Shown here: in pieces, positions 35,002 to 53,081 of the stretch | How positions within the stretch are numbered: the stretch's first letter is position 1 | How the letters are laid out: the number at the start of each line of letters is the position of its first letter | Virus record (IMG/VR): IMGVR_UViG_3300011906_000002 | Span: 1 to 64,000 of that record | Strand: one strand, 5' to 3' | Source of the DNA: an uncultured virus (IMG/VR IMGVR_UViG_3300011906_000002) | Lineage: Duplodnaviria; Heunggongvirae; Uroviricota; Caudoviricetes | Length of the DNA: 64,000 bases | The notes under the pieces: generated by a model | Seen by the model: the letters and a program-made list of their open reading frames with translations, nothing else | Databases searched by the model: none | What the model was told of the DNA's origin: nothing | Program-made: the position numbers and the translations under genes

Positions 35002-35078
35002 ACAAAACCCCGTTAGGTACTCCCTTCTCATAAGATACCGGGCATAAAACCCCAGGGAGGCCGAAGCCTCCCCAGGAC

Positions 35079-35633: not shown

Positions 35634-36184
35634 TTTTCCTCCACCACCAAATCGGTTACCAGTGACAGACGCATTTCGGGTTCATAACCACCCACACAAT
35701 GGGTTAGATACGCGGGAAAGATCAACAGCTCACCTGCTTGGGGTTCGTACCGGAAGTTTGCAAACTGTCGATCACGGATCTCTTTGGGAATGCCTCGTCC
35801 CGCCGAGCCACGCGGGTCCATGATAATCAACGGTGCTTTACTTGCAATGGGGTAGAACACCGAACTCAGCGTTGAGAAGCTGTGTTGATGTGGCTCCATT
35901 CCACGTCCGTCAGTAACCGTCAAACCAAAGTGTTGGAAGTAATGTGGGTGCTCTGAAAGTTTGGCCCCGTATTCAACCAACAGGTAGTTAGCCAAGGCTG
36001 GACGAATGTGCTCTTCTTGTAGCGCTCGCAAGATTTCAAACTCAAGCCGTACCTCAGCACTCAAGTCTTGTCCTGTAGGTGTCATCAGAATCGCTTCAGC
36101 GATGGCTTCAAGATCAACCTTCTCAGAGAGGTTAATTCGCCACACCACAGTGCTCCAGGGGTGTTCTCTCACAATGTCACCCAT
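35630..36184 (-). CDS. 2OG-Fe(II) oxygenase-like protein, tandem paralogue
   Basis: PHQHSFS..SSVFYP, DPRG, GELLIFPAYLTHCV and RLSLV; ATG 36184 overlaps the end of the upstream gene. Confidence 0.8.
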   Translation of the reverse strand: MGDIVREHPWSTVVWRINLSEKVDLEAIAEAILMTPTGQDLSAEVRLEFEILRALQEEHIRPALANYLLVEYGAKLSEHPHYFQHFGLTVTDGRGMEPHQHSFSTLSSVFYPIASKAPLIIMDPRGSAGRGIPKEIRDRQFANFRYEPQAGELLIFPAYLTHCVGGYEPEMRLSLVTDLVVEEK

Positions 36185-36614
36185 TGACACGCTCCAAACC
36201 TTCGGCAGTACACTCCAAACGGAAGTACTCGGCTGACATAGGCGCCCAACCGGATTCAATCCAATTAGGCATCGTGGCAAGTTCTGCCAGAATCGCTTCG
36301 TAGGTATCGGGGTCTTTGCTGTAGATTACAAAGAAGTCGTCGTGACCTAAGAACAGATCCGAGTCATCCAGTGATTCACGTAGCGGAATACCGTATTCCT
36401 GTTCCAACAAGGTGGCATAGATGATCGCCACCGCATAACTCTTGGCCGGGTAGACCAGAGGGAACTCAGCCTTACGGAAGTAGTTCAGTGCATTCTGAAT
36501 CAACTCAGGTTGTCTGATCCACTCCATGTTTTCGAAATCGTCGCTGTGTTCTTGCACTAGCTCGTGATACAAACGCTGGTACAGTTTGTAGTCGTGTTCA
36601 ACGGGTGTGTTCAT
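36177..36614 (-). CDS. Hypothetical protein in the radical-SAM cluster
   Basis: Translationally coupled on both sides; YPAKSYAVAIIYA. Confidence 0.75.
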   Translation of the reverse strand: MNTPVEHDYKLYQRLYHELVQEHSDDFENMEWIRQPELIQNALNYFRKAEFPLVYPAKSYAVAIIYATLLEQEYGIPLRESLDDSDLFLGHDDFFVIYSKDPDTYEAILAELATMPNWIESGWAPMSAEYFRLECTAEGLERVNG

Positions 36615-37696
36615 GCTTCTTGCCTACTGCTTAAAAGCTTATTGAGTTCGGTACCACAGTACTGCAGTTCTTTACCGTACTCACGGGTTAGGTCGTGGCG
36701 GTTCTTGATCCCAAGCGGACAGTGGTCGATCTTGAGGTAGCGCATCGTGGTATGGAGGTCACCGTGTGCACAAACGTTGACGTGACAACAATCACCGCAG
36801 GTTGGATGATCGGTGAACTGACTTAAGTTTTCGAAGTACTGGTTTTGACGGTACTCAATTACCTGATCAGCATCCCAGGGCTTAGGAATCTCGTAGAACG
36901 GATCGAAGATTGGAAACTTTTCCATGATCACGGGGATGTGATACAACACTCCGTCCCGATACCCCAACTCGACACCATCAAAGGGATCGTGTAACAGGTG
37001 ACCTACGAATTTCGAGTCGTGGTTGGCTATCACCTGAGTGAACTTATAGATGTCGTGTTTGAATTCATCATGACGTAACAGGTTTTCAAAACCATTACGA
37101 GAATGTGTGAAGGTGTAGTCTTTGATGGTCCGTACACCTAAATTTAAACTCATGATCTGGTGGTGATATTCAGGCGTGAACGCCGCCATGTTATCCCGGA
37201 ACATATTGATGGTTAGGTAGACGCTTTTCAGATGGGCTTTGCTAAGCCTGCTTGCAAAGAGCTGTACTCGTTCGGTTAACAGCTTCAAGTACTTTTCGTT
37301 GTAGCTGTTCTTAACTGTGATAGGTACGACCAAACGAATACCTTTGCCTGCCATCAGTTCATCAGCCAAATCGGCTAATTCAACAATCCCCTCTTCACGT
37401 AGCAGGGCCAGGGTCAACACGACGCTCTGGAAACGTTCAGCCATACCTTGGACTAATTCACTACTCATCACTGCCAAGCCATTCTTAGCTGACAGTACAT
37501 CAGTAGGGGCGAGGCTGAACTCAAAAGGACGAAAGCCTTTGTTCTGTAAGTCATCGACTAATGCAAACAGACGTTGGGCTTCATCACTTTCTACAGGTTC
37601 GGGTTTGTGATCTTTGTCCACTGTACAACCACCACAGTGGTAATCGCACCCTTCGAGTACTTCAAGAGTCAGGTTAATGTCACACAGTCTGTCCAT
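36611..37696 (-). CDS. Atypical radical SAM protein (CDYHCGGC) with Cys-rich C-terminus
   Basis: CxxxCxxC near the N-terminus; C-terminal CGDCCHVNVC...HC; no GGE motif. Confidence 0.75.
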   Translation of the reverse strand: MDRLCDINLTLEVLEGCDYHCGGCTVDKDHKPEPVESDEAQRLFALVDDLQNKGFRPFEFSLAPTDVLSAKNGLAVMSSELVQGMAERFQSVVLTLALLREEGIVELADLADELMAGKGIRLVVPITVKNSYNEKYLKLLTERVQLFASRLSKAHLKSVYLTINMFRDNMAAFTPEYHHQIMSLNLGVRTIKDYTFTHSRNGFENLLRHDEFKHDIYKFTQVIANHDSKFVGHLLHDPFDGVELGYRDGVLYHIPVIMEKFPIFDPFYEIPKPWDADQVIEYRQNQYFENLSQFTDHPTCGDCCHVNVCAHGDLHTTMRYLKIDHCPLGIKNRHDLTREYGKELQYCGTELNKLLSSRQEA

Positions 37697-38714
37697 CTTC
37701 CACCCCCACCATGCAGTCTTTGATGCTCAGACGTTCCATAAGGCTTGTGATGCCCTTTTCAACACAACTGCTAAGATACACACAGTTCATGCACTGCGTG
37801 CCTTCTAGGTGCTCTAGAGAGCTTTGTTGGGCCTGTGTACGGATTGTCAGCAAGTGCTCCATCGTCCAAGGACGTGGGATTTCAAAAAACGGGTCGATAA
37901 AGGCGCAGTCGTCTTTTAAGAACGGTACCCAATACAACTTACCGTCAGTGTAGAGCAGGTTCATCATAGTCCCGGTGTCGTAACACAGATCCGGATTCTG
38001 ACGCCGCTCGTCCTCACCTTCAAGTTCCTTATAGAAGTCAGAGATCAGGTAAGACATCCGCCGCATGGTTTGTCCAAGCAACAGGTCCTTGACTTCTTTG
38101 CGCCCATACGGAATGTTGAGAATGTCATCTTTGTCCACCGGGAACTCAACATCCAACCCACGGGCCAGGTTTTCTTTGTAGTGCTCGTTCATGGTGTCTG
38201 TGGTGCAGTTAACCACAAAACCTGCTTCGTTCAAGTACGCTGACTTAAACGCCGCTTGCGCATGTCGCATGCGGTGTACTATGCCGTCTGAGAACTTAGT
38301 GTTACGAAAGTAATCAGGAGCCGCTGGAATCAAGAACCGAATGCGTTGTCCTGGTGCTGCAGCATCGACCTCAGCACACATCTCATCGTACAACTCCAAA
38401 CGCTTTTCAAGCATCGCCATCTGGAGAGTGAATTGATGGAACATGTGGATGATGTCACGCACGACAGGGTCACGTAGAACTTGGTAGCCGTTAGTGGCTG
38501 ACATGGTGTCTGTCGCCCCAAGACCTAAGTCAAAGGCTACGTACCCGGCGTCAACCATCTCTTTAAGCAAAGCCAAGATTTCAGGCATGTCGGCCAAGTT
38601 ACCACCGATCTCTCGGTTGACCATACAACCACCGCAGTGGTGATTACATCCCTCGTAAAGATCGAGGGTGATCTCTAAACGTTGGCGATGGGGAACTATC
38701 ATAGCTCGCTCCAT
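37680..38714 (-). CDS. Atypical radical SAM protein (CNHHCGGC) with Cys-rich C-terminus
   Basis: Paralogue of 36611-37696 (shared DPF.EIP.PW); CMNCVYLSSC...DC. Confidence 0.75.
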   Translation of the reverse strand: MERAMIVPHRQRLEITLDLYEGCNHHCGGCMVNREIGGNLADMPEILALLKEMVDAGYVAFDLGLGATDTMSATNGYQVLRDPVVRDIIHMFHQFTLQMAMLEKRLELYDEMCAEVDAAAPGQRIRFLIPAAPDYFRNTKFSDGIVHRMRHAQAAFKSAYLNEAGFVVNCTTDTMNEHYKENLARGLDVEFPVDKDDILNIPYGRKEVKDLLLGQTMRRMSYLISDFYKELEGEDERRQNPDLCYDTGTMMNLLYTDGKLYWVPFLKDDCAFIDPFFEIPRPWTMEHLLTIRTQAQQSSLEHLEGTQCMNCVYLSSCVEKGITSLMERLSIKDCMVGVEDGQTV

Positions 38715-39625
38715 TTAACAATGAGGTTGTGAAACCCGTTACAGGATTCATTCAAATCCACCACAGGACGCAAGTGTTCAGACAAACACCCTCCGAAGTA
38801 ATCACACTTCCCACATACCGGGTTGTGACTCACTCGCCGGCGCTCAGCTTGACACCACTTCTTATAGCCTGTCACACCGAATAGGGGTAAGAAGTACTCA
38901 CGGTCTTGGTCATCAAACTCCAGTACCGCAAACTCACCCTGAGGGGTAATGTACAGGTGGTCATCACTGAATGCGTTGCGGGTCCCTGCTAAGACGTCTT
39001 GCAAAAGAAACTCGTTTTCCACCTCGAAACTGCGTTCAGGGTGGGTCAACACCTTATACACAAAGTCTTCGAACTCGGTGAAACTCACCGCGTCAGCGTT
39101 GGCTTGGTTAGTGCTATAGGGTTTGAATTCCACCCCGTACATCTGACCCAGCAGGTTAAAGGTATAGACACATTCATCGACACTGACTGTATCCAAGAAT
39201 GCGCGTCCCACCAGAGTCAGCACTCGGTACTCACGTGGCAGGGTCAACATGTTCTCTAATACTTTCTGGGATTTTTCCCGTGCACCGAAGTCGTAAGAGA
39301 CCGACAAGGTGATGTCAGGATCAAGAGCTGTGTCATTAACTAGAGACAGGTTGGTGTTGAGGTTGATGTCAGTACAGCCCATTTCACGCACCAGCGCGAG
39401 CAACCCATCCAGATACGCCTTAGGTAACAACAACACCTCACCCCCGTAGATGTCCACGTGTTCGATGGTGTAGTGTTCAGCCACTTCAGCCAAGCGCACT
39501 TTCAAAAGATCCAGTGGCAGTAGGGTTTGGTCACTCAGTTGTTGCTCGGTGAGGTAGCAAAAACCACACCGGAAGTTACAGTAGTAGCTGGGGTTCAAGG
39601 AGATGGTGATAGCGGGCTTGTTCAT
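38699..39625 (-). CDS. Radical SAM protein with SPASM/twitch-like C-terminus
   Basis: CNFRCGFCY, YGGEV, NTNL, SVSYD and CGKCDYFGGC...SC. Confidence 0.88.
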   Translation of the reverse strand: MNKPAITISLNPSYYCNFRCGFCYLTEQQLSDQTLLPLDLLKVRLAEVAEHYTIEHVDIYGGEVLLLPKAYLDGLLALVREMGCTDINLNTNLSLVNDTALDPDITLSVSYDFGAREKSQKVLENMLTLPREYRVLTLVGRAFLDTVSVDECVYTFNLLGQMYGVEFKPYSTNQANADAVSFTEFEDFVYKVLTHPERSFEVENEFLLQDVLAGTRNAFSDDHLYITPQGEFAVLEFDDQDREYFLPLFGVTGYKKWCQAERRRVSHNPVCGKCDYFGGCLSEHLRPVVDLNESCNGFHNLIVKWSEL

Positions 39626-39629
39626 GACA

Positions 39630-40715
39630 CTATCCTTTAAAAATCAACTGCAGACTTTCATCCACATACGGCGTAGGTTCTAAGATCCCCTCCATACCGT
39701 TCATGCGAATGATGGCTGGGGCATTGGCTTTCATAGCGAGGCAGTGTTGTTCCACCAGACCCAGGCGTTTAGTGTCGGCAATGGTTTTCTTACACCCGTT
39801 ACACAATTCAAACATTGGGCAGACATAGCAGGACTCTTTCAGACTGTCCAACTCAAACTGCTGAAGCGGTGTGAAGAACTCCCCTGCCATCTCACGTTTG
39901 AAGTCAATCGGGTTTTCTTGATCATCCCCAAAGTGACCACAACTGTAATAACCACCGCCTGGTTGTAGGGTGCGAATACCTGAGTCGCAATCACGAGAGG
40001 TTGGGCAGGTTGTAGAGTGCCCTTGAAGTTTTTTAGCCACTTGCTTGGTGTTGTACTCCCACTCCATCAAACCGGCTTCAAAGATCTCCACGTAATGGCG
40101 GTACATCTCACCACGGGTATACAACTTACCTTCGTTACCCATCGTGACCCCGCCGACTACTACTTCTTTGCCTGAAGCATTGGCGTAGTTAAGCTTACAC
40201 TCAACCCCTAGGCGCTGAGCCAAGCGCACCGTGTCCAGTACGGTGTGGGCATTGGAGTGATCGATGACTGCAATAAAGTCAGGACGGTAGCCTACGTGTT
40301 CAAGCATGGCGTCACTACAGGCAATAAAATCGGCTTCGGTGAAAACCGAACCGTCACCTTTGCGTCGACCATCGCCATATTGGAAAGAGGTGGTTACACC
40401 CACCCGAGGATGATTGAACAGAGGGGCCCACAGAGCCGGCTTCTTATAGAAAGGCCACAAGTTAGTCGTGAAGCTGATGCTGGCTTCAGAACCTAGTTCA
40501 TCGAGCTTAGCAATCAGATCCCAGTAGTACTGCGGAGAAACCATTAATGGGTCACCACCATTGAGAATGATGGTCTGAGTATCGGGGAACCGTTGGATGA
40601 ATTGAATTACTTCACTCAGCCCGACGCTGTCATTAGAGTCTTCAGACAGATATGTGCTTGAGCAAAAGGTGCATCGGAAATTGCACTTAGCAGTTACTTT
40701 CAATATCAAATCCAA
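39630..40715 (-). CDS. Radical SAM/SPASM protein
   Basis: CNFRCTFC, NGGDP, TTNL, CPTSRDC, SCG and CYVCPMFELCNGC...HC; TTG start after AAGGAAGG. Confidence 0.9.
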   Translation of the reverse strand: MDLILKVTAKCNFRCTFCSSTYLSEDSNDSVGLSEVIQFIQRFPDTQTIILNGGDPLMVSPQYYWDLIAKLDELGSEASISFTTNLWPFYKKPALWAPLFNHPRVGVTTSFQYGDGRRKGDGSVFTEADFIACSDAMLEHVGYRPDFIAVIDHSNAHTVLDTVRLAQRLGVECKLNYANASGKEVVVGGVTMGNEGKLYTRGEMYRHYVEIFEAGLMEWEYNTKQVAKKLQGHSTTCPTSRDCDSGIRTLQPGGGYYSCGHFGDDQENPIDFKREMAGEFFTPLQQFELDSLKESCYVCPMFELCNGCKKTIADTKRLGLVEQHCLAMKANAPAIIRMNGMEGILEPTPYVDESLQLIFKG

Positions 40716-40716
40716 T

Positions 40717-40959
40717 TTAGATTCCTTCCTTATCGAGCGGCAGACTGTTGATCTCATTCTCGCTCACCCAAAAGGACTCAGCGTCAGTTACGTAACGAGT
40801 CACTCGATACGGATACGGGGCACGCGCGCTGACTTGAAGTACTTTGAGAGCATCGCCCTTTTCGGCGTTGACTTTAGTTTTACCTTTTATGCCGCCGACG
40901 TTTTCAGAAACAATGGTACGGTTGGCATAAACAACATCGTTAGGCTGGTAGAGATTCAT
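40717..40959 (-). CDS. Small hypothetical protein (80 aa) inside the radical-SAM operon
   Basis: TAAGGAG SD; upstream ATGGTATAAT and a hairpin. Confidence 0.7.
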   Translation of the reverse strand: MNLYQPNDVVYANRTIVSENVGGIKGKTKVNAEKGDALKVLQVSARAPYPYRVTRYVTDAESFWVSENEINSLPLDKEGI

Positions 40960-41041
40960 GGCAGACTCCTTAGTCTTTATTATACCATCTAGAACAGACG
41001 TAATAATTGACCGCCAGGGAGTTACCCCCGGCGGCCAGTTG

Positions 41042-42040
41042 TTACAAGATTTGATCGAACATCTGTTTTATGCTGCACTCGGTTGTAGTACCCTCAACGA
41101 AGCTGTGGTGCAAGAAACACCGCAACCCGCACCGTTGATAGTACTCACACGACAAACAGCCGTAGTGGTCCAGGAAACGCTCCTCAGCCGCATTCTTAGC
41201 TTGCAGCCCCAGTTTTTCATCCAAGACGGCATCTTTACCAGCTTCTGACCAACAGGTGGTGACCACACCATCCTTGTTGATGATCTTGGTTGACCGACAA
41301 GTGGTGATGTTTTCTTGGTTCTCCTTCCATGCAATCAACGGATGAGAGTTGGGGTGGTGTTCGTTCAGGTACAGGTAGAGCTTCCCGATCAGGTCTTCCG
41401 AGGGTTGCAACCGTTCGTAGTTGGTACTCGGGATGTAGTGGTCGAAGTACACAGAGAAGTTTTTGCACAGGTAGTTAAGATGTTCAGTCTCAACCCCTGA
41501 CATGATGGTCTCGATGTTCTGTTTGGTGATCACCACATTGACCGTGTCGACAAAGTCTTTGACCAAGAACAAGTTGTAAAAGAACCGCTCTCGATCCTCT
41601 GGGTTAAAGCGCCCGGCGGGATCGTAGGAAGTGGCTATCTTGACTTTGCCGTGTGGTTGAAGCAAGGTCATCAAGCCAATAACGCGATCTACATTCTGAT
41701 AGACGAGATTGGTACCGAAGACCACCGTAACGTCCTCGTAGTAGTCAAACAACCGTCTGGCGATGTAGTAGTAGTTCTGGAATAAATGGAGAGGGATCTC
41801 ATCCAAGAACAACTCACCCCCAGTCAGGTTTACTACATAACGGTCTTGTGGACTGCTGTTGGCTAACAAGGCGTCTACCTTAGCCCACATGCCATCGCCT
41901 TCCATCCCCACTTTGGAGTCGTGGTCTTGATGACAGAAGCTACAGCGCAAGTTGCAGTACTCAAACAGAATCAGGTGGGCTTCTTTCAACTCACCTTTTT
42001 TGTCGGCTAACAAGTCAACCAACGGAATCAGTCCAGCCAT
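41042..42040 (-). CDS. Radical SAM/SPASM protein
   Basis: CNLRCSFCH, TGGEL, GTNL, TSYD and CLSCEYYQRCGLRC...EC. Confidence 0.9.
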   Translation of the reverse strand: MAGLIPLVDLLADKKGELKEAHLILFEYCNLRCSFCHQDHDSKVGMEGDGMWAKVDALLANSSPQDRYVVNLTGGELFLDEIPLHLFQNYYYIARRLFDYYEDVTVVFGTNLVYQNVDRVIGLMTLLQPHGKVKIATSYDPAGRFNPEDRERFFYNLFLVKDFVDTVNVVITKQNIETIMSGVETEHLNYLCKNFSVYFDHYIPSTNYERLQPSEDLIGKLYLYLNEHHPNSHPLIAWKENQENITTCRSTKIINKDGVVTTCWSEAGKDAVLDEKLGLQAKNAAEERFLDHYGCLSCEYYQRCGLRCFLHHSFVEGTTTECSIKQMFDQIL

Positions 42041-43098
42041 TTCGCACCCATCCCTGCTCGGGTCAAAGTTCCCAACGGCGCATTGATCATAAAGCGCAGA
42101 AGGTTATCGTCGTACTTACCAATGTCGCGTTGGGAGACTCGAACCATCTTAGGTCCGTGGTCAAAGAAGCGATGCAACAACCCAAACAACGTTTCAGTGT
42201 CCTCGATCACAAAGCCACTGAGGTAGACTTCGTGGATGCTTTCCATGTAGGCCACGATGCTAAAGTCGTTGTTGTGTCGTAACAAGAACAACATCTCATC
42301 GATCATTTCAGCCAACCAATCGACCGGGTAACGATCATTGATATTGGACAACATCACAAAGTCTGGGTTGTTCAGATACTTGAAGTTATAACACCCCTCA
42401 AACACCGTTTCCTCATTAAGTAGGCTGTCAAGGTCTGCGCCGATCAATTCCCACTTTGCAGGATTACCCATGAAGGTTGAGAGATAACCCATGGTGTCAG
42501 GTACGTTGGTCAACAACACCCGATCGATCAAACGACGCAAACGCTGACCTACTGTACCCAAAGGCATGCCTAACCGAATACCCAGTACGTCCCACTCAAA
42601 CGAACGCACGATGTCAGCCTTAGACACCCAACGAGACAACACCTGTGTTAGCCAATCGTTGTGAGCGTTATCAAACGCTTCACGCACTTTAGGCTCAGTG
42701 ATATTCACAGGGTTAATGTGGCTGGTACGCTCACGCATGGTGGTCGTGGTACGACAGTTGAGGATACTTTTCTTACACAGACACAGGTAACGAAAGGTCT
42801 CGTAATCAACACAAGGCATATAAGCGAAGACTAAAGCGGCCCACATTCGAATGTAGGTCGCCTCGTCTGCGTACAAATACGCCTCATCCTTCCACGCCAA
42901 CTGCTCGAGCATTTCTTCAAAGGTCTGTTCACCAGCCTCATCCAAAGTCTCAGCAACGTGTATAGGTTCGATTGCGTTCTCGTTCCCGTCCAGCATTAGG
43001 AAAGGCAGCCCCATCTGTTTAGAGATCACCGCACGGTTTTTCTCGTCGTCAACCTCACGATCAACTTCTACGTACAGACTGTTAAACAGATGGAACAT
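42028..43098 (-). CDS. Hypothetical protein in the radical-SAM cluster
   Basis: 356-aa ORF, coupled to its neighbours. Confidence 0.75.
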   Translation of the reverse strand: MFHLFNSLYVEVDREVDDEKNRAVISKQMGLPFLMLDGNENAIEPIHVAETLDEAGEQTFEEMLEQLAWKDEAYLYADEATYIRMWAALVFAYMPCVDYETFRYLCLCKKSILNCRTTTTMRERTSHINPVNITEPKVREAFDNAHNDWLTQVLSRWVSKADIVRSFEWDVLGIRLGMPLGTVGQRLRRLIDRVLLTNVPDTMGYLSTFMGNPAKWELIGADLDSLLNEETVFEGCYNFKYLNNPDFVMLSNINDRYPVDWLAEMIDEMLFLLRHNNDFSIVAYMESIHEVYLSGFVIEDTETLFGLLHRFFDHGPKMVRVSQRDIGKYDDNLLRFMINAPLGTLTRAGMGAKWLD

Positions 43099-43100
43099 AC

Positions 43101-43808
43101 TTAAGCCTCTAACAATTCAGGAAGCAACTGATCGTGGGTCTTCATGAGACCGACAAAGCCTTCGTGAAGCTCATCCTCGTGAAGCGCGCCGATGATGGTG
43201 AACAGTACGTTGTCACGTGATTCGAAATGGTGATACAGGTTCTTACCTGCGAACACACGTCCTTCAAACCAATGCTTGCTGTAACGCACCGGACGACCTT
43301 GGGCAAAGTACAAAGCCATCCCCGGATGGTTCAAACAATGCACCCAATTCAAACCACTGGCAGTTTCATCGACGCCTGGCCACAGCGCAGGGTCACCAAT
43401 GACTTCTTCACCAATGAGGACACGGGTTGCATACAGCGGACACATGTCCAAGCGCTCAGCCCAGATGTCCAAAGCGGCTCCGTGTGCTTCAAAGAATGCT
43501 TGAGGATCGAAAGGCACCGAACCTGGGAGACCCTCGCGAATCAACAACAAGTTCACCACGATGCCCACCAAAGCCTCTTGGTAGAACATCACAGGGACTT
43601 CAAGATACGCAGCAGTCAGCTCCATCAGGTCGGCTTCACCGTCGACCAGCAAATCTACTTCGACCTTGAGGTTGCTCAGGTAGGTCAGAAACGACTTACC
43701 CTTGAACTTACTTTTGCTGTACTCGATCTCAAAGTGCAGGTCCTCACTGAACTTGCGCTTGAGGGTTAAGATTGGGATCGGCGCTGGGGTCGTGATCACT
43801 TCTTGCAT
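43101..43808 (-). CDS. Hypothetical protein in the radical-SAM cluster
   Basis: AGGAG SD; SKFKGKSFLTYLSNL. Confidence 0.75.
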   Translation of the reverse strand: MQEVITTPAPIPILTLKRKFSEDLHFEIEYSKSKFKGKSFLTYLSNLKVEVDLLVDGEADLMELTAAYLEVPVMFYQEALVGIVVNLLLIREGLPGSVPFDPQAFFEAHGAALDIWAERLDMCPLYATRVLIGEEVIGDPALWPGVDETASGLNWVHCLNHPGMALYFAQGRPVRYSKHWFEGRVFAGKNLYHHFESRDNVLFTIIGALHEDELHEGFVGLMKTHDQLLPELLEA

Positions 43809-43823
43809 AAGGGGAAACTCCTA

Positions 43824-44435
43824 TTAACGACGGCCGCGGTTGGAGTGGCAGTCGGAGTGGCAATTGCTGTGGCAAAAGGTTTTGGTGATCCGCAGGGTTT
43901 GGTTGCTGAGGTTCACGATGTGGGCGTAGACGCGCTCACAATAGTTGATCACTTCTGCACGACTGGCGTTCTGTCCAGCCGACATAGGGCTGGCTGCATA
44001 GTTGTCGATACCGTGTAGGTACGGGTCTACGTAGTCACTAGCAGACCAAGCACCGCCACCGTTACTGTTGGCCGGACGAGCCTGTGTACGGGTTAGGGCC
44101 ACACTACTGGACAGTCGCGTTATCCCGGTGACGTTCTGTCGTACCGACAACGAACCTTGGCTGTTGTAATACGAGAGAAATTGCATCGAGCGTACACGTG
44201 CCCAGTTACGGCTGTAGGCTGAGATGTTTGCTACCACCGCATCTGCCTTCACCGGACCCACCGGCAACCACGAAGAGGAGAACTCGCCTGTTACGATGCC
44301 TGTATTACCTCCGTAGTTCGGATCGCCAAAGTCGCTGGGGTAGCTGTTGCTACCATACGAAACACGGCTATCCAAGCGGTTACGCAGATAACTGTTGATG
44401 ATGTTGGCTACATCCTGCCGAGTGATTTCTGCCAT
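43824..44435 (-). CDS. Candidate modification-target protein with C-terminal Cys-x-x-x repeat (CHSN-CHSD-CHSN-RGRR)
   Basis: S/N/G-rich 203-aa protein; three of its four Cys lie in the terminal CHSx repeat; located among six radical SAM genes. Confidence 0.75.
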   Translation of the reverse strand: MAEITRQDVANIINSYLRNRLDSRVSYGSNSYPSDFGDPNYGGNTGIVTGEFSSSWLPVGPVKADAVVANISAYSRNWARVRSMQFLSYYNSQGSLSVRQNVTGITRLSSSVALTRTQARPANSNGGGAWSASDYVDPYLHGIDNYAASPMSAGQNASRAEVINYCERVYAHIVNLSNQTLRITKTFCHSNCHSDCHSNRGRR

Positions 44436-44440
44436 TTCTT

Positions 44441-45484
44441 TTACGCCTTGAAAATGAGGTTGGGGTCATACGGATTAGGACGACCGCTTAAATAACGTAG
44501 GGTGTTCTTCAGACCCGCACAACGATAGCCTTGCCATGACAAGCGATGACAGTCACCACCACAGAGGTCAAACACGTCACACTGGATACACACCTCAGAG
44601 AAGTCCAACTCCCGGACAATCTCATCAACTCGCCCTTCAGAGGCTAAGTATTCCTGGGGCGATTGGTGTATGCTGCCATGGTTGTGCTCACTGGCTGCAT
44701 TCGGACACCCACCTAAGGTACCGTTAGAGTTGATTGTGGTGAGGTTCTGTTCACAGTTGCGACAGTTGGTATCCACAGCCACCATGTTGTACTTGATCTT
44801 TTCGATCAGGATATCCAGGGTTTTGATACGCACAGGATACTGACCGGTTTGATAGTGCTTCAGCAACTCCAAGTACCAGTTGTCTTGAGCCTCGTTGTCT
44901 GGAAACACGTGTTCATTTCGTAACGCATTGCCGCCTACTGTCAAACGTTCAAGCGACACATCACGAACGAGCAACTCTGACATTTGGGTAAGGAACCAGA
45001 CTGGCGATTGTTCAACCAACTGACGAGACACCGATACCTTAAGTCCTAACTCTACACCCGCTTGCGACAATAGCGAAACGTTGTGGTGCCACAACAATTT
45101 CTGGTTATCGGTTTCCCACCGAATCCACGGGTCCCAACTGGTACCAATAGAACCCCCTAGACTCTTTTGGATGAAATCCACAAGCCGAGGTTTTAGAGTG
45201 AAGGTGAGGTTGCTGTTGGCAGACATCGACACAGCGTCATCGCCTTCGAAGTGTGCCGCAAAGCGCTCTAGCAGCTCGATGGGGACGAGAAAGGGTTCAC
45301 CGCCATGCAACTCTAGGTGTGTGTGCGTACCGGGCTCAAACGTCTCCCTGAGGCCTTTGATCCAATTGGCTGTCGCATCCGGGTCGAACCGTGTAGCGTC
45401 TCCAGTACGTCCGCTGGTAAAACAGTGACTACAATTGAGGTTGCAGGTCCCAGTGGTTTTGACATAGATCGTTTTGACCGTCAT
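44441..45484 (-). CDS. Radical SAM/SPASM protein
   Basis: KTTGTCNLNCSHCF, HGGEPF, NSNL, TSWD, CRNC, GCP and CIQCDVFDLCGGDC...RC. Confidence 0.92.
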   Translation of the reverse strand: MTVKTIYVKTTGTCNLNCSHCFTSGRTGDATRFDPDATANWIKGLRETFEPGTHTHLELHGGEPFLVPIELLERFAAHFEGDDAVSMSANSNLTFTLKPRLVDFIQKSLGGSIGTSWDPWIRWETDNQKLLWHHNVSLLSQAGVELGLKVSVSRQLVEQSPVWFLTQMSELLVRDVSLERLTVGGNALRNEHVFPDNEAQDNWYLELLKHYQTGQYPVRIKTLDILIEKIKYNMVAVDTNCRNCEQNLTTINSNGTLGGCPNAASEHNHGSIHQSPQEYLASEGRVDEIVRELDFSEVCIQCDVFDLCGGDCHRLSWQGYRCAGLKNTLRYLSGRPNPYDPNLIFKA

Positions 45485-45975
45485 AGCTTTTCAACCATCC
45501 ACTTCTCAAAGCCCAAACTGATAATGATCGACGCCTGTTCATTTACGGCATAGTGTTTCACGTCTGCTGGGATGTACAGGGTATCGCCGGCTTTTAGATG
45601 ATGAGGTACACCCTCGACCACCATGGTTTTCTCTCCCTCGACAACACAGATCAACACATGATCAGGATCGGTGTGTTCGTGGAAGCTGTAACCTCCTGCT
45701 GGTGCTATAAAGATGTGGGCAGTCACTGGACCTCGATGCTTGTAGGAATTGGCCTTGTGTTTGCACCAGTCCCACACACCCTGATCGAAACTTTCAAAGT
45801 GTTCGAGTTTGATGCTGGATCGAAAGTCCATCAGCGACGCTGAGTTCTTGAACGGAACAATCACATTGGGTTCAGTGATCACGTGAAGAACTTGTTGCTC
45901 ACGGGCGTAGTCAGAACTGATGCACAGATCAAAGTACTGATTAGCTTTAGCACGAATCTCATTTTGACTCAGCAT
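45481..45975 (-). CDS. Cupin/JmjC-like Fe(II)/2OG hydroxylase
   Basis: SFHEHTD (HxD), VVEGEK and LKAGDTLYIP..KH (distal His). Confidence 0.8.
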   Translation of the reverse strand: MLSQNEIRAKANQYFDLCISSDYAREQQVLHVITEPNVIVPFKNSASLMDFRSSIKLEHFESFDQGVWDWCKHKANSYKHRGPVTAHIFIAPAGGYSFHEHTDPDHVLICVVEGEKTMVVEGVPHHLKAGDTLYIPADVKHYAVNEQASIIISLGFEKWMVEKL

Positions 45976-45989
45976 GGAGGTTACTCACT

Positions 45990-46799
45990 TCATGGGTTAA
46001 GGGCTTCGATCTCCGACTTGAGTTCGTCGATCTCTGCACGCATCTCGGCAAACAGTTGTTCGGCTTGGCTAAGCTTCATCACCGAATCACGCCGAATGGG
46101 TACGAGTGTCCCTTCTGGCTTTTCTTCTTGAGGGCGTTCACGAACGCCAAAGGTGCAACCCCGCAGGCCGCCGAGCAACACAATCTGGAAGTCGTTACGG
46201 GCTGCATCACCGCACCAGATTTCAGTTTGTTCTACACCGTGATCGTCTTTAACCTTGCGGTAGAAGAAGTCAACTGTGTAACGACCGCTCAGGGTGTTAA
46301 CGATCGGTGGACGACCTTCACGGCCAATACGCAGATACGCCACCGGACGTTCAGCCAAGAACCCGTATGGACCACCCCCAATCAACAGGAACAACAGATC
46401 CTCGTTGAAGGTCTTGTTGCCACCGTATTCGCTTGAGTAGTTCGCAGGAATGGTGACCAGACGTGACCAACCCCCTTTACTGAGTGGGATGACCATATAC
46501 GGATGGCTGGCTTCACGGATGCGTGTCTTAACTTCCAACAACACGTCATCGAGTGTCCGCCCAGCAAGGCGATCAGCATCCAACACACGTCCAGCAGGGT
46601 CACGGACGATGGCCAGGACTTCTTCTGCACTCAGACCACCCAGACACAAGGCATTACGAGCAGTTGCGCTCTCGGCGATGTATTGAAGCACTTCCTCAAA
46701 GGTGCGTCCTTCAAGTCGCTTGGAGTTTTGGGCCGTATCCAACAGACCCAACTTCTCAGACAAGGCTTGTTTAAGCTCATCGCTAATCATTACATTCAC
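45990..46799 (-). CDS. Tail-fibre-associated protein
   Basis: Three A-x-N/D-x-x-x-L-x-G-x-T/S repeats shared with the fibre genes; C-terminal coiled coil. Confidence 0.6.
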   Translation of the reverse strand: MNVMISDELKQALSEKLGLLDTAQNSKRLEGRTFEEVLQYIAESATARNALCLGGLSAEEVLAIVRDPAGRVLDADRLAGRTLDDVLLEVKTRIREASHPYMVIPLSKGGWSRLVTIPANYSSEYGGNKTFNEDLLFLLIGGGPYGFLAERPVAYLRIGREGRPPIVNTLSGRYTVDFFYRKVKDDHGVEQTEIWCGDAARNDFQIVLLGGLRGCTFGVRERPQEEKPEGTLVPIRRDSVMKLSQAEQLFAEMRAEIDELKSEIEALNP

Positions 46800-46800
46800 C

Positions 46801-47580
46801 TTAACGGTTATTTTTCAAATTTGTGAACTTTGTTTTGAGACCGGTCAACTCTTGACATAGGGGTTCTGCCATGGCGTCAAATTCAGACTGGAACAAAGCG
46901 GTTTCATAAGAAAGGCGGCTTAACCCCTCTTTTGACAAATCCACAGGTTCTTGTTCGGACAAACCGTAGGAGTGGTCACGAGTGGAGTTTGCGCAAGCCA
47001 TCGTCAGGGGTGCACGGCTATCGGCACCGTACCAGAGTTCTGTGTAGATCACCCCGTCGCCAGGTACCGTACGCGTCACGAACTCCCCGCAGTACTTACC
47101 ACTCAGAACCAAAACTTCAGAACCACGGCCTTCTACGCCTAAGCGCAACATCGCTACAGGGCTGTCACTTTCCGCGTAATTCAAACCACCCCCAAACAGA
47201 CCGAAGTAAAAGTCTTCACGGTTAGGTGTAGATTCAACTGTCACCAGGTGGGTCCAGTAATGACTGCAGGCCTTAAACCGAACGCCTTGGAAGGTGCGGG
47301 TATCGACTAACCCCATCAATAGAGATAGAAGTCCCTCTTCCTTCAGTCCACCAAAACTAGCAGCCACTGGGGCATGAACTTGAGGTTGTTGACGAATGTC
47401 GATCAGTTCTTCAAGGCGGTAGCCAGACAAGGCTTCAGTATTATTCACCACCCCACTTTCTTCAAGGTAGGTTTGTAGCTCACCTAGGGTGATGCCGTCT
47501 ATTAGGTAGCTGTCGTTAACGATACCGGTTTTACGGTCTACCAACATCGCCAATTGTTCAGGGGTAAGTTGTTCGGTCAT
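46801..47580 (-). CDS. Tail-fibre-associated protein, paralogue of 45990-46799
   Basis: Same repeat module; shared W..LVT, GGG......PVA.LR.G.EGR, LSG.Y and TE.W.G...R motifs. Confidence 0.6.
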   Translation of the reverse strand: MTEQLTPEQLAMLVDRKTGIVNDSYLIDGITLGELQTYLEESGVVNNTEALSGYRLEELIDIRQQPQVHAPVAASFGGLKEEGLLSLLMGLVDTRTFQGVRFKACSHYWTHLVTVESTPNREDFYFGLFGGGLNYAESDSPVAMLRLGVEGRGSEVLVLSGKYCGEFVTRTVPGDGVIYTELWYGADSRAPLTMACANSTRDHSYGLSEQEPVDLSKEGLSRLSYETALFQSEFDAMAEPLCQELTGLKTKFTNLKNNR

Positions 47581-47664
47581 AGAAGCGATACTCAGGTTAC
47601 AGACAAATAAAAAAAGAAGCAAGTATGGGCTGTTAACCCATACCTGTTTCTCTGAAAAGTAAAA

Positions 47665-49305
47665 CTATACCCACTGAGCGGGCCACACTTGCCGCCAAGT
47701 CCCACCACCCCAGATGTAAACACCCGAGCCGTTCCAATGGACACTGCAATCAACGCCTGCAGTATTCTTCGGTGCGTAGCGGGCATCGTGGTCGCCAGAG
47801 TTGACGTGTCCATACATACCAGCTGCTGTTAACAACGAGCCGTTAGTGTTAGACCCACGGTCAGCAGTGATCGAGTTTGGTAGGTTACCCAACCCGACTT
47901 GTGTCTTGGTCACACCGTGTGGATTATCAGTCCGACTGATGTGGCTGTTCAGAGGTTCGACAGCGAACTTGTTGACCAGCTCCATGGTGCGCAGTGGCGT
48001 CATGAACTTGTTCGAAGCCGTACCGGCCAACGCATCCACTTGGGTAGCCGTGTCGTGGTTATCGACGAGACTGAGACCCACTTGGGCTTTGGTGACTGTG
48101 TGCGGATTGTCCTTTCGGTCAATGTGTGCATTCAGTGGCACCAGGGCTTGCGTTGCAATCGCTTGTGCAGTACGCAGTGGCGTCATGTACAAGGTGTTGC
48201 TTGTGCCTGCCCGTGCATCCAGTTCTGCGGCTACACCGTAGTTCTGTACACTACCCAGTCCCACTTGCGCCTTATTGACGTTGTGTGGGTTATCGGTGCG
48301 TGCAATGAACGTATTGAACGGGGTGATGATGTGGAAGTCCAATGCTTGCTTAACAAGCAGTGGTGTGGTGTACAGAGTAGGGCTGGTACCTGTCTCCATA
48401 TCCACTTTACTGGCCACATTGTAGTTGGCTACGTTCCCCAGTCCCACTTGCCCTTTCGTCACCCCATGCGGGTTATCGTTACGTGCAATGTGGGCGTTCA
48501 ATGGCTTGAGTGCGTGTTCGTTGATCGCGTCGCGAACCCGAAGCGGTGTGGTGTAGAGCGTGTTGCTGCTCGCAGCCACCATGTCTTCGGTAGACGCAAT
48601 GCCGTAGTTCTCAACCGAACCGAGTCCTACCTGAGCCTTAGTGGTCTGGTGCGGATTGGTCGCGTCTTGAATGTGAGCATTCAGCGTCGCTTGGTTTTCA
48701 TCGATGCGTGCACGTAGCAGACTGTCTTCGTAGCGAACCCACGAACGAATTTCTTCGTGTGTGGCTTCGTCACCAATCAAGATCGCTGAACGCAAAGCTT
48801 CCAGTGCTTCCACCACGTACTCGAAACCATAAAGGTCACCGATGTCGTGTAGGTGTGGTGCTGGTGGGAAAGCGCTCGGACGAGCAATGACGTCGCCCCA
48901 GCTGACAGACCGCTCATCGAGGTCTTCGTCTTCAATGGCTTGGCGCAAAGCGTCAACCGATACACTGAAATCGCCACCCACGGTTTGGTATTGCAGACTT
49001 ACCTTACCGACGATGTTTTGATCAATGATCACAACCGCCATGCAGACTTCACGGTTCAACGCCGCTGTAGCATCGGCATGAAGCTGTACTGCGAGGTAGT
49101 GTTGAAACGGCACTAGCGGATCAACACGATCGGCTACTGTCACCACCAACGACTCACTGTAGTAAGCGCTGTACTCTGGGACAATCGCGCGGTTGAGGCC
49201 GCTCCCTAGGTCGTGTTCCTCACCGGTGATCAGGTTGTTAGGATTAACGCCCGTCGGGTCAATGGGATACTTAAGGATAAGTCCCCGTGTCAGGGTTGAG
49301 GACAT
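47665..49305 (-). CDS. Tail fibre protein (phiKZ gp145/146-like)
   Basis: YPIDPTG..P.N.I..E.H; five HI....NPH..TK.QVGL repeats; C-terminal H..SGDHDARY and GGGTWRQVW. Confidence 0.8.
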   Translation of the reverse strand: MSSTLTRGLILKYPIDPTGVNPNNLITGEEHDLGSGLNRAIVPEYSAYYSESLVVTVADRVDPLVPFQHYLAVQLHADATAALNREVCMAVVIIDQNIVGKVSLQYQTVGGDFSVSVDALRQAIEDEDLDERSVSWGDVIARPSAFPPAPHLHDIGDLYGFEYVVEALEALRSAILIGDEATHEEIRSWVRYEDSLLRARIDENQATLNAHIQDATNPHQTTKAQVGLGSVENYGIASTEDMVAASSNTLYTTPLRVRDAINEHALKPLNAHIARNDNPHGVTKGQVGLGNVANYNVASKVDMETGTSPTLYTTPLLVKQALDFHIITPFNTFIARTDNPHNVNKAQVGLGSVQNYGVAAELDARAGTSNTLYMTPLRTAQAIATQALVPLNAHIDRKDNPHTVTKAQVGLSLVDNHDTATQVDALAGTASNKFMTPLRTMELVNKFAVEPLNSHISRTDNPHGVTKTQVGLGNLPNSITADRGSNTNGSLLTAAGMYGHVNSGDHDARYAPKNTAGVDCSVHWNGSGVYIWGGGTWRQVWPAQWV

Positions 49306-49364
49306 ACAAGTTACTCCGAATAGGGGTATGGGAGGTCAGTCACCACACCCTTTGGAAAAGATGA

Positions 49365-51674
49365 TCAGTTAGCGGTATTCGCTATTGCCTCGTTGCGCAT
49401 TTCTACGGCAAAGGCATCCAGACGTTGTTCTAACATGACGTTGTCAATGAGGTAGACCTTGGTAGGCGTCAACACAGGCTCAAGAGCCGTATCAAAATCC
49501 AACGCCGCCCAATCAGGTTCACCTGCAAAGACTTCACCTGAGAAGATGATGTCGGAGTTACCCACAGCATTTACCACCTGACAATGAATCTGACCCCGCG
49601 ATTGTGCACCGCTCTCAACCCAGAGTTCCTTACGGTCACCCACCGCTTTGATCCGGAAGGTATGGCCGACGTCCTCACCACAAATGATGACATGGTCAGC
49701 ATCTTGGTAAGCACCGTTGGAACCGTCCGCATCAACCAGCTTCACCAGCGAAGTGCTGCTGCGCGCATCGTCTTGCTCATGAAGTGTGACGATGGCTTCG
49801 AAGCGAGACTCTGCAGTGGTGAACAGTCGTGTCCACGCACGCCCTTCAATCAACTCAGACTCATGACCTACAAACATTGCTGTTTGAGGAGCTTTAACAT
49901 CCGCCACAATTTCGTTGTGGATGGTAGTCAAGTCTTTGCCTTCAAGGTGGGTGGCCTTGGGTGCAATTTGAGAGGTGAAGTACGTTTCCAGTTCCGGAAC
50001 CGTGTAACCACCAAAGCGCAGGGTGTTCTCAGCTTCAGTGACCTGGAGTGAGTCAATCAACTGCTCGTAAGTGTAGCCCGCCAACTTTTCCGAGTTCGCA
50101 GCAGTACTGCCCGTGGTCATATATCCCAACAGCTTAGTGTCTAATTGTGCTGGGACCAACGCACCGATTTGTTCAGCGGTAACCTGGTGAGGGTTGTCTG
50201 TACGACCGGCGTGAGTGGAGACTTCGTCGCCAACCACAGTGGCTAACATAGTTGCTGTAGTAGCCGGTGTCATGAACCGGTTGGTGGCAGTGCCGGTGAC
50301 GGCTTCCTCGTTAGTTGCAGTGGGGAAGTTGTCAACATTACCAAGCCCTACCTGAGTCTTATTGACTTGGTGCGGATTGTTGCCATCGTTGGTGTGTGTC
50401 CGATACGTTGCCAGCGCCACCTGATCAATGGCTGCACGCACCCCAACGGGTGTCACGTACAGGTTGTCGGCGGTACCTATCACCGTTTCAGCTGTGGTTG
50501 CGATGGTGTAGTTCTGAACGTTCCCCAACCCGACTTGTGTTTTGGATACACGGTGTGGGTTATTGAGGTCACTGATGTGATTGTTCATCCCTTCACCCAC
50601 GTACTGACTCACCATCTGGTAAGTGGTCAATGGGGTCATATAGCGGTCATTACGACTGCCGGCAACAGCTTCTATTTCGGTGGCAAGTGGAAGGTTCTGT
50701 ACAAGACCCAACCCAACCTGAGTTTTATTAACGCCGTGCGGGTTATCAATCCGATCGGTGTGTGCTTTGATCAACGGATACACGTTGGCATCGAGCGTGG
50801 CTTTAAGTACGACCGGTGTCAGGTAAACCGTGTTGGAGGCACCCGAGATCCCTTGCTCGTTGGTTGCAATGCCGAAGTTCTGCACATTGCCCAAACCTAC
50901 CTGTCCTTTCGTCACCCCATGCGGGTTGTCGTTACGCAGGGTGTGGCCTTCAAGTAACGGGGTGACGTAAGCTTCAACGAAGTTACGAACCCGAATAGGC
51001 GTCATGTACAGCTCACTGCTGGCGCCCGCAACGGCCTCAGCGATGTTCGCCAGCGGATAGTTCTCCACCAGGTTCAAGCCAATTTGGGCTTTGGTCACAC
51101 GGTGTGGGTTGTTGTAGTCCCCGACGTGCGATGTCCCGTTAGCATCGTTGGCTGCATTGATCGCTGCGGTGATCTCGTGGAGCTTGACAACGATTTCTTT
51201 GGCACCTGTCAAGTCGTCCAAGTCCCACTCGTGGTCAATGACCGGGAACTGGAACGGCAAGTCGACCACCTGTTCCCACGTGGTGATGCGTGGGTTCATC
51301 AGACGGTTGGCCATAAGCTCGAGAACTGTGTTCTCGTCATACACCCAGTCGCCACCGATGGTTTGGTAACGTAGCTCAACCACACCGGTAAGGCTGCGGT
51401 CTAGGAAAGTGATGGAACCGTACACCGGACGGCCAACACCATGAGATGCTGCATGGAACCAATGCGTGAGGTGGTAATCCACCCCTTCGACCAAATCGCG
51501 ACCCAAACCGAGATGGCGAATACGCAGGTTGTTACGGAAGAATGGTGCAAAGGTTGGGACTATGAAATTGAATTCACGGTCAGTCACCCCAGACAGCACA
51601 TGCCGTTCATTAGGGATCACGTTGGAAGTCAACGAGCCCGTCGGGTCGAATGGATAAACGTAGGTCTGCGACAT
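49365..51674 (-). CDS. Tail fibre protein (phiKZ gp145/146-like)
   Basis: YPFDPTG....N.I..E.H, YQTIGG and six H....NPH.V...Q.G repeats. Confidence 0.8.
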   Translation of the reverse strand: MSQTYVYPFDPTGSLTSNVIPNERHVLSGVTDREFNFIVPTFAPFFRNNLRIRHLGLGRDLVEGVDYHLTHWFHAASHGVGRPVYGSITFLDRSLTGVVELRYQTIGGDWVYDENTVLELMANRLMNPRITTWEQVVDLPFQFPVIDHEWDLDDLTGAKEIVVKLHEITAAINAANDANGTSHVGDYNNPHRVTKAQIGLNLVENYPLANIAEAVAGASSELYMTPIRVRNFVEAYVTPLLEGHTLRNDNPHGVTKGQVGLGNVQNFGIATNEQGISGASNTVYLTPVVLKATLDANVYPLIKAHTDRIDNPHGVNKTQVGLGLVQNLPLATEIEAVAGSRNDRYMTPLTTYQMVSQYVGEGMNNHISDLNNPHRVSKTQVGLGNVQNYTIATTAETVIGTADNLYVTPVGVRAAIDQVALATYRTHTNDGNNPHQVNKTQVGLGNVDNFPTATNEEAVTGTATNRFMTPATTATMLATVVGDEVSTHAGRTDNPHQVTAEQIGALVPAQLDTKLLGYMTTGSTAANSEKLAGYTYEQLIDSLQVTEAENTLRFGGYTVPELETYFTSQIAPKATHLEGKDLTTIHNEIVADVKAPQTAMFVGHESELIEGRAWTRLFTTAESRFEAIVTLHEQDDARSSTSLVKLVDADGSNGAYQDADHVIICGEDVGHTFRIKAVGDRKELWVESGAQSRGQIHCQVVNAVGNSDIIFSGEVFAGEPDWAALDFDTALEPVLTPTKVYLIDNVMLEQRLDAFAVEMRNEAIANTAN

Positions 51675-51779
51675 TCCGCGCTCTCCAGAATTTAAACGAA
51701 TGGTATAGTTGCTCCCTAAACAGAGAGTAAATTATTACACACCATATCATTGGCAGTCCCCCTCATGAGAGGAACCACT

Positions 51780-53039: not shown

Positions 53040-53081
53040 CGGCATACAGGACAGGGTAGACCCCTGTCCTGTTTATGCGCT

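Follow-up and report, generated by a model that had tools for sequence, protein, structure and literature searches.

We analyzed a stretch of 64,000 nucleotides (the window), corresponding to positions 1 to 64,000 of the uncultured Caudoviricetes virus record IMGVR_UViG_3300011906_000002 (223,076 bp with direct terminal repeats), and focused on a gene whose product, referred to as the target protein, ends in three Cys-His repeats and a basic terminus. The gene is part of a cassette that also encodes six radical S-adenosylmethionine (rSAM) proteins, named rS1 to rS6, and three oxygenase-like proteins. Based on sequence conservation, gene context and one published virion proteome, we estimate a probability of roughly 0.6 that the target is a virion protein and that the cassette enzymes cross-link and hydroxylate its tail. 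That the target is their substrate is well supported by its conservation and gene linkage, as is a structural role by one proteome.

The target gene (Table 1) starts with ATG and its product terminates in ...KTF-CHSN-CHSD-CHSN-RGRR. The open reading frame (ORF) thus confirms what a first-pass annotation of the DNA had described as a 203-amino-acid protein with a terminal (CHSx)3-RGRR core at positions 43827–43874. The remainder of the protein had been characterized as rich in S, N, G and A, in agreement with the sequence by eye, and as far longer than is the norm for the leader of a RiPP, a peptide produced by ribosomes and modified after translation; 187 residues precede the tail. The tail is encoded by the codons TGC CAC AGC AAT / TGC CAC TCC GAC / TGC CAC TCC AAC / CGC GGC CGT CGT TAA. 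The degenerate pattern (TGYCAY N6)x3 occurred once in the window and was present in none of 100 dinucleotide-preserving shuffles. Compared with the relatives at the viral loci L002, L003 and L004, the 16 tail codons showed 6, 5 and 8 synonymous and 2, 0 and 4 non-synonymous changes, respectively, the latter being confined to the x positions and leaving C, H and R untouched. A chance repeat or recent slippage as the origin of the tail was ruled out by the shuffles together with the synonymous codon changes, and the codon comparison bears out the earlier view that the different codons of the three repeats reflect protein-level selection without recent slippage. The tail is therefore a genuine feature, on whose protein sequence purifying selection acts.

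A word-indexed search retrieved 11 close homologues of the target at 58–98% identity. The wider family, defined by searching 1.84 billion cluster representatives with a profile, comprised 91 proteins at E ≤ 1e-3; the profile included the tail, and this sample therefore leans toward tail-bearing proteins. The strict ending (C-H-x-x)3-R-x-R-R was found in 65 of the 91 representatives and close variants in 24, and the tail was absent from two. Outside the tail the family diverges to ~20–30% identity, whereas the tail is nearly invariant. A search for the motif at C-termini combined with an inspection of the gene neighbourhoods was also the check proposed in the first-pass annotation, and its outcome is a conserved motif, exact in the 65 representatives mentioned above, with an adjoining rSAM cassette. 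Among the strict tails, position 3 of the unit varied freely, position 4 was S or N in 62, 60 and 59 of the 65 tails (units 1, 2 and 3, respectively), and the residue between the first two Arg was G in 55. Tails of two, four or six units were also present in the family.

The variant tails bear on the possible chemistry. In five representatives Tyr stands in place of His. Variant units without Cys retain an aromatic residue and keep the aromatic-x-polar triad, and one variant tail is entirely devoid of Cys, yet contains three such triads. A unit with the leading Cys but without an aromatic residue was not seen when the tail lists of the family were inspected by eye. These variants tilt us slightly toward the aromatic residue as the partner that a putative cross-link cannot do without. 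The earlier suggestion that the His-x-Asn/Asp triplets could form cyclophanes is consistent with this variation, since position 4 is almost always S or N, His can be exchanged for Tyr, and the triads survive the loss of Cys. Because Cys is kept in almost all members, C–C and thioether chemistry may both occur.

An AlphaFold2 (AF2) model of the target, based on an alignment of 75 family members, reached a predicted local distance difference test (pLDDT) score of 88 and a predicted template modelling (pTM) score of 0.81. In this model, residues 1–188 form an alpha/beta domain whose last strand stops at the first Cys, and the final 15 residues protrude from this strand as a tail with a pLDDT of ~50. 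Foldseek found no match to the model in the PDB at E ≤ 1e-3, and with the exhaustive aligner VIA wide the best Z was 5.0, so that no known fold could be assigned by either comparison. The model matched only uncharacterized family members in BFVD, including a 296-amino-acid protein of Agrobacterium phage Atu_ph07. The target had no match in Pfam or NCBIfam (in the latter even at E up to 10), and its sole match in PHROGs was a weak one to phrog_35144 (1.8e-5), a family of not known function. A heme-binding CX3CH motif was considered for the tail and dropped, as His gives way to Tyr in some tails and an export signal is absent. A complex prediction with rS6, the target, three 4Fe-4S clusters and S-adenosylmethionine scored 0.01 against a mark of 0.32 and carries no weight either way.

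The linkage between tail and cassette was assessed in viral contigs and species genomes with a DNA pattern for the tail and its stop codon as the only bait, the enzymes not being used. The viral contigs yielded at least 123 stretches, some loci being overlapping pairs from a single contig, and 115 of the 123 listed contained an ORF ending in the motif (ORF lengths at these loci are upper bounds, as the first start codon was taken). An rSAM homologue was located at most 3 kb away in all 62 listed viral loci that had at least 3 kb on both sides, and the number of rSAM genes per viral locus was 2–8 with a median of 4 among the matches listed. In the species genomes, 47 stretches were retrieved, of which 37 had a motif ORF; rSAM neighbours were found in 27 of the 27 with enough flank. 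Nine chance matches inside other genes, which provide a control for the genome scan, had no cassette gene near them, and one further stretch was cut by the locus edge. The target had been put forward as a candidate substrate in the first-pass annotation, and it is now the best candidate, given that the tail-only scan always meets the same cassette of rSAM, cupin and 2-oxoglutarate (2OG) oxygenase genes. Because the tail is the sole invariant part of the protein, protrudes from the folded domain of the model and always lies beside SPASM-type rSAM genes, we take it as the probable rSAM substrate.

The cassette occurs in two layouts. In the recurring order, which includes the phages pPa_SNUABM_DT01 and RSL2, the genes for cupin, rS6, target, a 235-amino-acid protein, rS5, rS4, rS3, a 145-amino-acid protein and an oxygenase follow each other. 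The second layout starts with two tandem small tail-bearing targets (~125–140 amino acids), followed by five rSAM genes on the same strand; three or four further cassette genes were observed on the opposite strand. Loci of this type are L006, L031, L039, L040, L044, L072, L080, L083, L085 and others. Searches of phage records gave no match for the 127- and 257-amino-acid size classes of the family (tblastn) or for positions 39000–52000 of the window (megablast), and the second layout had no counterpart among cultured phages in these searches. Among public sequencing runs, none with RNA was listed for positions 39600–49400.

All six rSAM proteins of the window contain a CX3CX2C cluster motif near the N-terminus. 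A full SPASM-type CX2CX5CX3C cysteine motif is present in rS4, rS5 and rS6, whereas rS1–rS3 possess only shorter C-terminal Cys clusters. The PF04055 cut-off of 29.5 bits was passed by rS3 and rS4, and rS6 scored 29.4 bits. Across 48 rS6 homologues the rSAM and SPASM cysteines were invariant, and by these sequence features rS6 is a bona fide SPASM enzyme. As a class, SPASM-type rSAM enzymes act on peptide side chains.

We propose that the target is synthesized in the cytoplasm of the host, its folded domain carrying a flexible tail at the C-terminus, and would then be matured by the cassette, which forms the last part of the tail-fibre operon in the 223-kb genome of a phiKZ-like jumbo phage. 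The six rSAM enzymes most likely abstract hydrogen atoms in the tail and may install bonds from the His/Tyr ring to the beta-carbon of the S or N two residues on, thioethers at the Cys residues, or bonds of both kinds. Hydroxylation of His, Asn/Asp or Arg probably falls to the JmjC-like cupin and the two 2OG oxygenases. The cupin presumably resembles the ribosomal oxygenases that hydroxylate His or Arg, a likeness that would suit a tail containing these residues. The matured protein would subsequently become part of the virion, with the fibre/baseplate apparatus or its vicinity as the probable site, and the enzymes would be left behind.

Cassette and tail were also detected in cultured phages, namely Pseudomonas phage pPa_SNUABM_DT01, the Ralstonia phages RSL2, RSF1, RsoM3USA and the FLC4 group, the Burkholderia phages FLC6, FLC8 and SURPRISE13, and Agrobacterium phage Atu_ph07. 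In the accessible parts of the respective publications, six rSAM genes are noted with DNA repair or metabolism as suggested functions (PMC8541153), and cupin, rSAM and 2OG genes are entered as accessory (PMC11898562, PMC8066314). A full-text literature search, outside of which most subscription journals lie, found no paper in which these enzymes are connected with virion maturation or with a protein that has a Cys-His tail.

The homologue in Atu_ph07 (AUZ94952.1, positions 121118–122008) consists of 296 amino acids with the same tail and has a calculated mass of 31.89 kDa; the products of the genes six and seven positions past it have calculated masses of 66.07 and 21.66 kDa. Because the coordinates and calculated masses agree with Table S5 of Attai et al. 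2018 (PMC6102473), which gives 31.89 kDa for gp170, 66.07 kDa for gp176 and 21.66 kDa for gp177, we identify AUZ94952.1 as gp170. According to the available sections of that study, gp170 was detected in purified Atu_ph07 virions by electrospray ionization tandem mass spectrometry (ESI-MS/MS) with 8 unique peptides and 35.16% coverage, and the flanking cassette products gp165–169 and gp171–172 are absent from the 131-protein virion list (PMC6102473). In this one study of one phage, a member of the family is thereby shown to belong to the particle, and the flanking enzymes are shown not to. The first-pass annotation had guessed at a virion structural protein, and the detection of gp170 backs this guess. 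In the same part of the source, gp170 is recorded in gel fragments 1–9 and most abundantly in fragment 1, the peak of proteins of 75–139 kDa, whereas other 29–32 kDa proteins peak in fragments 7–8 (PMC6102473). This behaviour hints at a high-mass form of gp170 that is resistant to heat and sodium dodecyl sulfate (SDS).

The virion data also bear on a different fate of the tail, in which it would be modified and then cut off as a small peptide or cofactor with an antibiotic, signal or redox function, and the N-terminal domain would act solely as a handle for recognition. Such a precursor would match the RiPP-like layout, with a C-terminal core beside SPASM rSAM genes. Long leaders are known in nitrile-hydratase-like leader peptides, and mycofactocin and pyrroloquinoline quinone (PQQ) derive from the C-terminal residues of their precursors. 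We nevertheless regard a long-leader precursor as quite unlikely. Library scans recognized no protease or transporter family among the cassette proteins, three of which are without assignable fold or family, the N-terminal domain is conserved and, in the AF2 model, confidently folded, the cassette lies inside a structural operon, and the Atu_ph07 homologue was recovered from virions at 35.16% coverage.

Several points weigh against a virion protein with an enzymatically modified tail. The modification is inferred from the gene neighbourhood alone, and the virion evidence consists of one distant homologue in one study. The high apparent mass of gp170 could reflect an SDS-resistant oligomer instead of covalent links. 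None of the window rSAM proteins reached the cut-off of a curated rSAM family, so that no reaction can be read from homology. Among the matches listed, the rSAM count of 2–8 does not track the number of tail repeats, and because of this some of the cassette enzymes may act on something else. The 32-protein virion list of Ralstonia phage phiRP31 contains nothing from the rSAM region at ORF68–76, a result that was given no weight, as phiRP31 is only a candidate carrier of a family member. In phiRP31, two fibre-like 'YomR' genes precede ORFs of 125 (ORF70) and 295 amino acids, which in turn lie directly upstream of four rSAM-like genes; this segment (ORF70–76) could represent the small-target layout.

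A further point on this side is that Cys and His, the invariant positions of the tail, are classic metal ligands. Three Cys and three His, maybe shared between subunits, could bind Zn, Fe, Cu or an Fe-S cluster in an unmodified tail, with the enzymes serving another substrate. Metal sites occur in T4 fibre tips, which such a tail would resemble, and both the location of the target gene in a fibre operon and an rSAM count that does not scale with repeat number would fit. We consider an unmodified metal site unlikely, however, as the exchange of His for Tyr or the loss of Cys with retention of the aromatic-x-polar triads suits cross-linking better, and as a pure metal site would not call for the conservation of S/N at position 4. 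Moreover, Pfam and NCBIfam scans of the cassette turned up nothing else that would be an obvious substrate, nor any enzymes for sugars or nucleotides, and the co-occurrence with rSAM genes was complete in the judgeable loci among the matches listed. The first-pass annotation had also considered a siderophore mimic or a receptor ligand; nothing in our analysis supports either.

The cross-linked and hydroxylated tail that we propose resembles several known systems. The HXS antiphage system consists of HxsA, the rSAM enzymes HxsB and HxsC, and HxsD; in the accessible text, HxsA is described as a protein of ~214 amino acids with His-x-Ser repeats, on which two rSAM enzymes act and which carries a +8 Da modification on S-H-R-S-S (Li et al., Nat Commun 2026, PMC13128918). 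Both systems combine a whole protein of ~200 amino acids, short His-centred repeats, more than one rSAM enzyme and basic residues near the repeats, and the S-H-R-S-S outline of HxsA corresponds to the phage C-H-x-S with Cys replacing the first Ser, so that a small nucleophilic residue precedes His in either case. The phage repeat differs, however, in having a period of 4 with Cys before each His, compared with a period of 3 in HXS. Furthermore, the phage tail is located at the extreme C-terminus and ends in R-G-R-R, with no N-terminal signal peptide visible, its cassette contains 2–8 rSAM genes (among the matches listed) plus three oxygenases, and it is found in phages and predators and not used as defence. 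The NCBIfam His-Xaa-Ser repeat model did not match the target at E up to 10, rS4 reached 34.1 bits with the HxsC model (cut-off 267.9) over the N-terminal core only, and among the matches listed (best 25 for rS4 and rS6) no Hxs models appeared for the other cassette proteins. At the sequence level, the relation to HXS is thus one of resemblance, not membership.

The basic HxS repeats of HXS were proposed, in the part of the report at hand, to bind DNA (PMC13128918). By analogy, the phage tail could be a basic targeting or assembly tag that docks to the particle or to DNA, its Cys-His repeat being incidental to the enzymes, and the almost invariant R-x-R-R end would agree with this. Such a tag is very unlikely in our view, as it leaves the invariant Cys-His pairs, the synonymous-only change at their codons and the complete linkage to rSAM genes unexplained.

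A second comparison concerns the triceptides, three-residue cyclophanes in which, as far as the available text covers them, rSAM/SPASM enzymes such as HaaB, YhhB and HtkB join C2 of His to the third residue's beta-carbon in the motifs HAA, HNR and HTK (Phan and Morinaka 2024, PMC11499958). The phage triads H-S-N, H-S-D and H-S-N, or H/Y-x-[S/N/A/D] across the family, are similar, as are the SPASM-type enzymes, whereas every phage unit has an invariant Cys in addition, a folded protein is the substrate, and many enzymes are encoded, compared with one for triceptides. All matches of the window rSAM proteins to cyclophane maturases remained below the cut-offs (YhhB 44.3 of 445 bits, FxsB 29.4 of 370, GrrM 22 of 310), and the AmcB model was also not reached. 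Thioether-containing RiPPs comprise the sactipeptides and ranthipeptides (PapB/freyrasin, SCIFF), and the QhpC subunit is cross-linked by an rSAM enzyme and kept in the final assembly. The phage tail shares with these the regularly spaced Cys beside SPASM rSAM enzymes, but its invariant His after each Cys has no counterpart there. Matches to the ranthipeptide and sactipeptide maturases PapB (rS6 39.8 and rS5 30.1 bits; cut-off 340) and StsB (20.7 bits; cut-off 625) and to the QhpD model (17.8 bits; cut-off 453) were likewise below the cut-offs, and no maturase of the PapB, CteB or sactisynthase type was identified by these scores. The CXXX-repeat peptide modification system of NCBIfam/TIGRFAMs has Cys at every fourth residue beside an rSAM maturase; the phage target had no NCBIfam match at E up to 10, and the CXXX maturase was not among the best 25 matches of any phage rSAM protein. 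As far as our searches reach within the literature covered, the phage system is an undescribed variant of rSAM-dependent protein maturation.

The cassette was also found in the chromosomes of predatory Bdellovibrionota (genome loci L135–L176, e.g. L174, L153, L151 and L143), which accounted for 26 of the 37 true genome matches, some of them on contigs of 1.3–2.8 Mb. In an even sample of Bdellovibrionota, the tail pattern occurred in 10 of 301 genomes, and the cassette is thus patchy in this group. Pfam annotation of the flanks at four loci revealed cellular genes at two of them (signal peptidase II, LolA, matrixin-like peptidases and a helicase; one of the two also has a transposase), a fragment of an AMP-binding enzyme and a DUF4097 protein at the third, and a fibre-like protein with an endosialidase-chaperone domain at the fourth. 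No N-terminal signal peptide was seen by eye in the predator proteins.

A quick maximum-likelihood tree of 97 rS6 homologues was constructed, from which GenBank loci, three duplicate loci and matches with E above 1e-20 or outside 300–420 amino acids were omitted. The predator copies of rS6 clustered (6 label changes compared with a mean of 20.8 after shuffling; none of 500 shuffles was as low) and were largely apart from the main viral group. Since the tree is unrooted for donor purposes, no donor of the cassette can be named. The rS6 copies from other genome bins fell among the viral contigs, one being identical to that of a viral contig, and these non-predator copies are probably binned phage DNA. 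At L139, L140, L148, L158, L175 and L177, phage-type cassettes were carried by contigs from bins assigned to Marinovum, Rickettsiales, Rhodobacteraceae and a Methanobacteriota archaeon.

With respect to the role of the modified tail, we tentatively raise the possibility, which we hold at well below even odds, that it becomes a covalent staple or a reactive metal-chelating tip, which would fix the protein to the fibre or baseplate or act on the prey envelope.

The positions of the cassette and fibre genes in the window are given in Table 1. The target is the seventh gene in a same-strand run that opens with two long fibre and two short fibre-like proteins and continues with the cupin, rS6, the target, the 235- and 356-amino-acid proteins, five rSAM genes with an 80-amino-acid ORF among them, the 145-amino-acid protein and two oxygenases.

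Table 1 Location of the target gene, the cassette and the fibre genes in the 64,000-nucleotide window
Feature	Position	Strand	Basis and remarks
Fibre module upstream	45990–51674	-	PHROG tail/virion structural matches down to 1e-157; order shared by relatives
Two long fibre proteins	49365–51674, 47665–49305	-	Part of fibre module
Two short fibre-like proteins	46801–47622, 45990–46799	-	Part of fibre module
Cupin / JmjC-like oxygenase	45481–45975	-	Pfam Cupin_2 9.6e-12, JmjC_2 6.5e-10
rS6, radical SAM/SPASM, directly upstream of target	44441–45484	-	TIGR04085 29.5 bits, cut-off 27
Target protein	43824–44435	-	Folded N-terminal alpha/beta domain (1–188) and flexible 15-residue end; AF2 model, ORF list
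C-terminal tail (C-H-x-[S/N])3-R-G-R-R, proposed modification site	43827–43874	-	Stop codon at 43824–43826
235-amino-acid protein, constant downstream partner of target	43101–43808	-	phrog_20767; adjoins target in most loci
356-amino-acid protein, in part of the family only	42028–43098	-	No family match; homologues in 14 viral loci among the matches listed
rS5, radical SAM, SPASM-like Cys motif	41042–42040	-	Motif and library matches
80-amino-acid ORF, close relatives only	40717–40959	-	2 loci among the matches listed
rS4, radical SAM, SPASM-like Cys motif	39630–40757	-	PF04055 31.9 bits, cut-off 29.5
rS3, radical SAM	38699–39625	-	PF04055 32.4 bits; CX3CX2C present
rS2, radical SAM-like	37680–38714	-	CX3CX2C at residue 23; weak PF04055 match
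rS1, radical SAM-like	36611–37696	-	CX3CX2C at residue 17; no library match
145-amino-acid protein, conserved cassette member	36177–36614	-	Homologues in 51 viral loci among the matches listed
2OG-Fe(II) oxygenase-like	35630–36280	-	PF13759 3.7e-8
2OG-Fe(II) oxygenase-like	35079–35633	-	PF13759 2.9e-8

The 235-amino-acid partner of the target was modelled by AF2 with a pLDDT of 92. Foldseek found no match to it in the PDB, and the best Z obtained with VIA was 4.2, limited to residues 1–55. It opens with beta-alpha-beta units, which in this segment gave Z of 2.8–3.9 to a few rSAM cores among many unrelated folds, and may contain a degenerate rSAM-like domain or owe this likeness to chance. The 145-amino-acid protein had no family match and no usable match in the ESM Atlas. 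The two short fibre-like proteins (~270 amino acids each) show a repeated L-x-G-x-T/S-x-E/D-E/D-V/L-L near the N-terminus, have no family match, and are conserved in the closest relatives only. Just downstream of the cassette, three small paralogues of 165, 160 and 193 amino acids are encoded on the reverse strand (32595–33092, 33947–34429 and 34501–35082); they contain an N-terminal G-x-W-K/R-P-type motif about three times, and one of them had a weak PHROG match of not known function. The remaining parts of the window (1–31500 and 51700–64000) have the look of a phiKZ-like jumbo phage, with ribonucleotide reductase subunits, a DnaB-like helicase and a polymerase as well as large virion structural proteins, RuvC, a baseplate assembly protein and SbcC.

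Maturation by rSAM enzymes is known for small peptides, for a few enzyme subunits and, since 2026, for one bacterial defence effector. To our knowledge, no virus particle has been described in which a component is matured in this way. The cassette is common, as it was found in at least 123 viral stretches and in cultured jumbo phages of Pseudomonas, Ralstonia, Burkholderia and Agrobacterium and recurs in predators, and it devotes up to eight oxygen-sensitive enzymes (among the matches listed) to a tail of 12–16 residues. If our interpretation is true, it would reveal a new type of post-translational chemistry in virion assembly and provide a defined substrate, together with its enzymes, in which new rSAM reactions on His and Cys could be discovered. 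It would also account for a gene block for which the accessible text has no more than the entry 'radical SAM genes, perhaps DNA repair' (PMC8541153). The availability of cultured phages and the short fixed motif make this system directly testable. If the tail indeed acts as a staple, the behaviour of gp170 at the top of the gel would be the signature of intermolecular cross-links. Jumbo phages and Bdellovibrionota both invade Gram-negative cells, and a staple or tip of this kind would be a chemical component of the attack apparatus, produced by enzymes and common to both.

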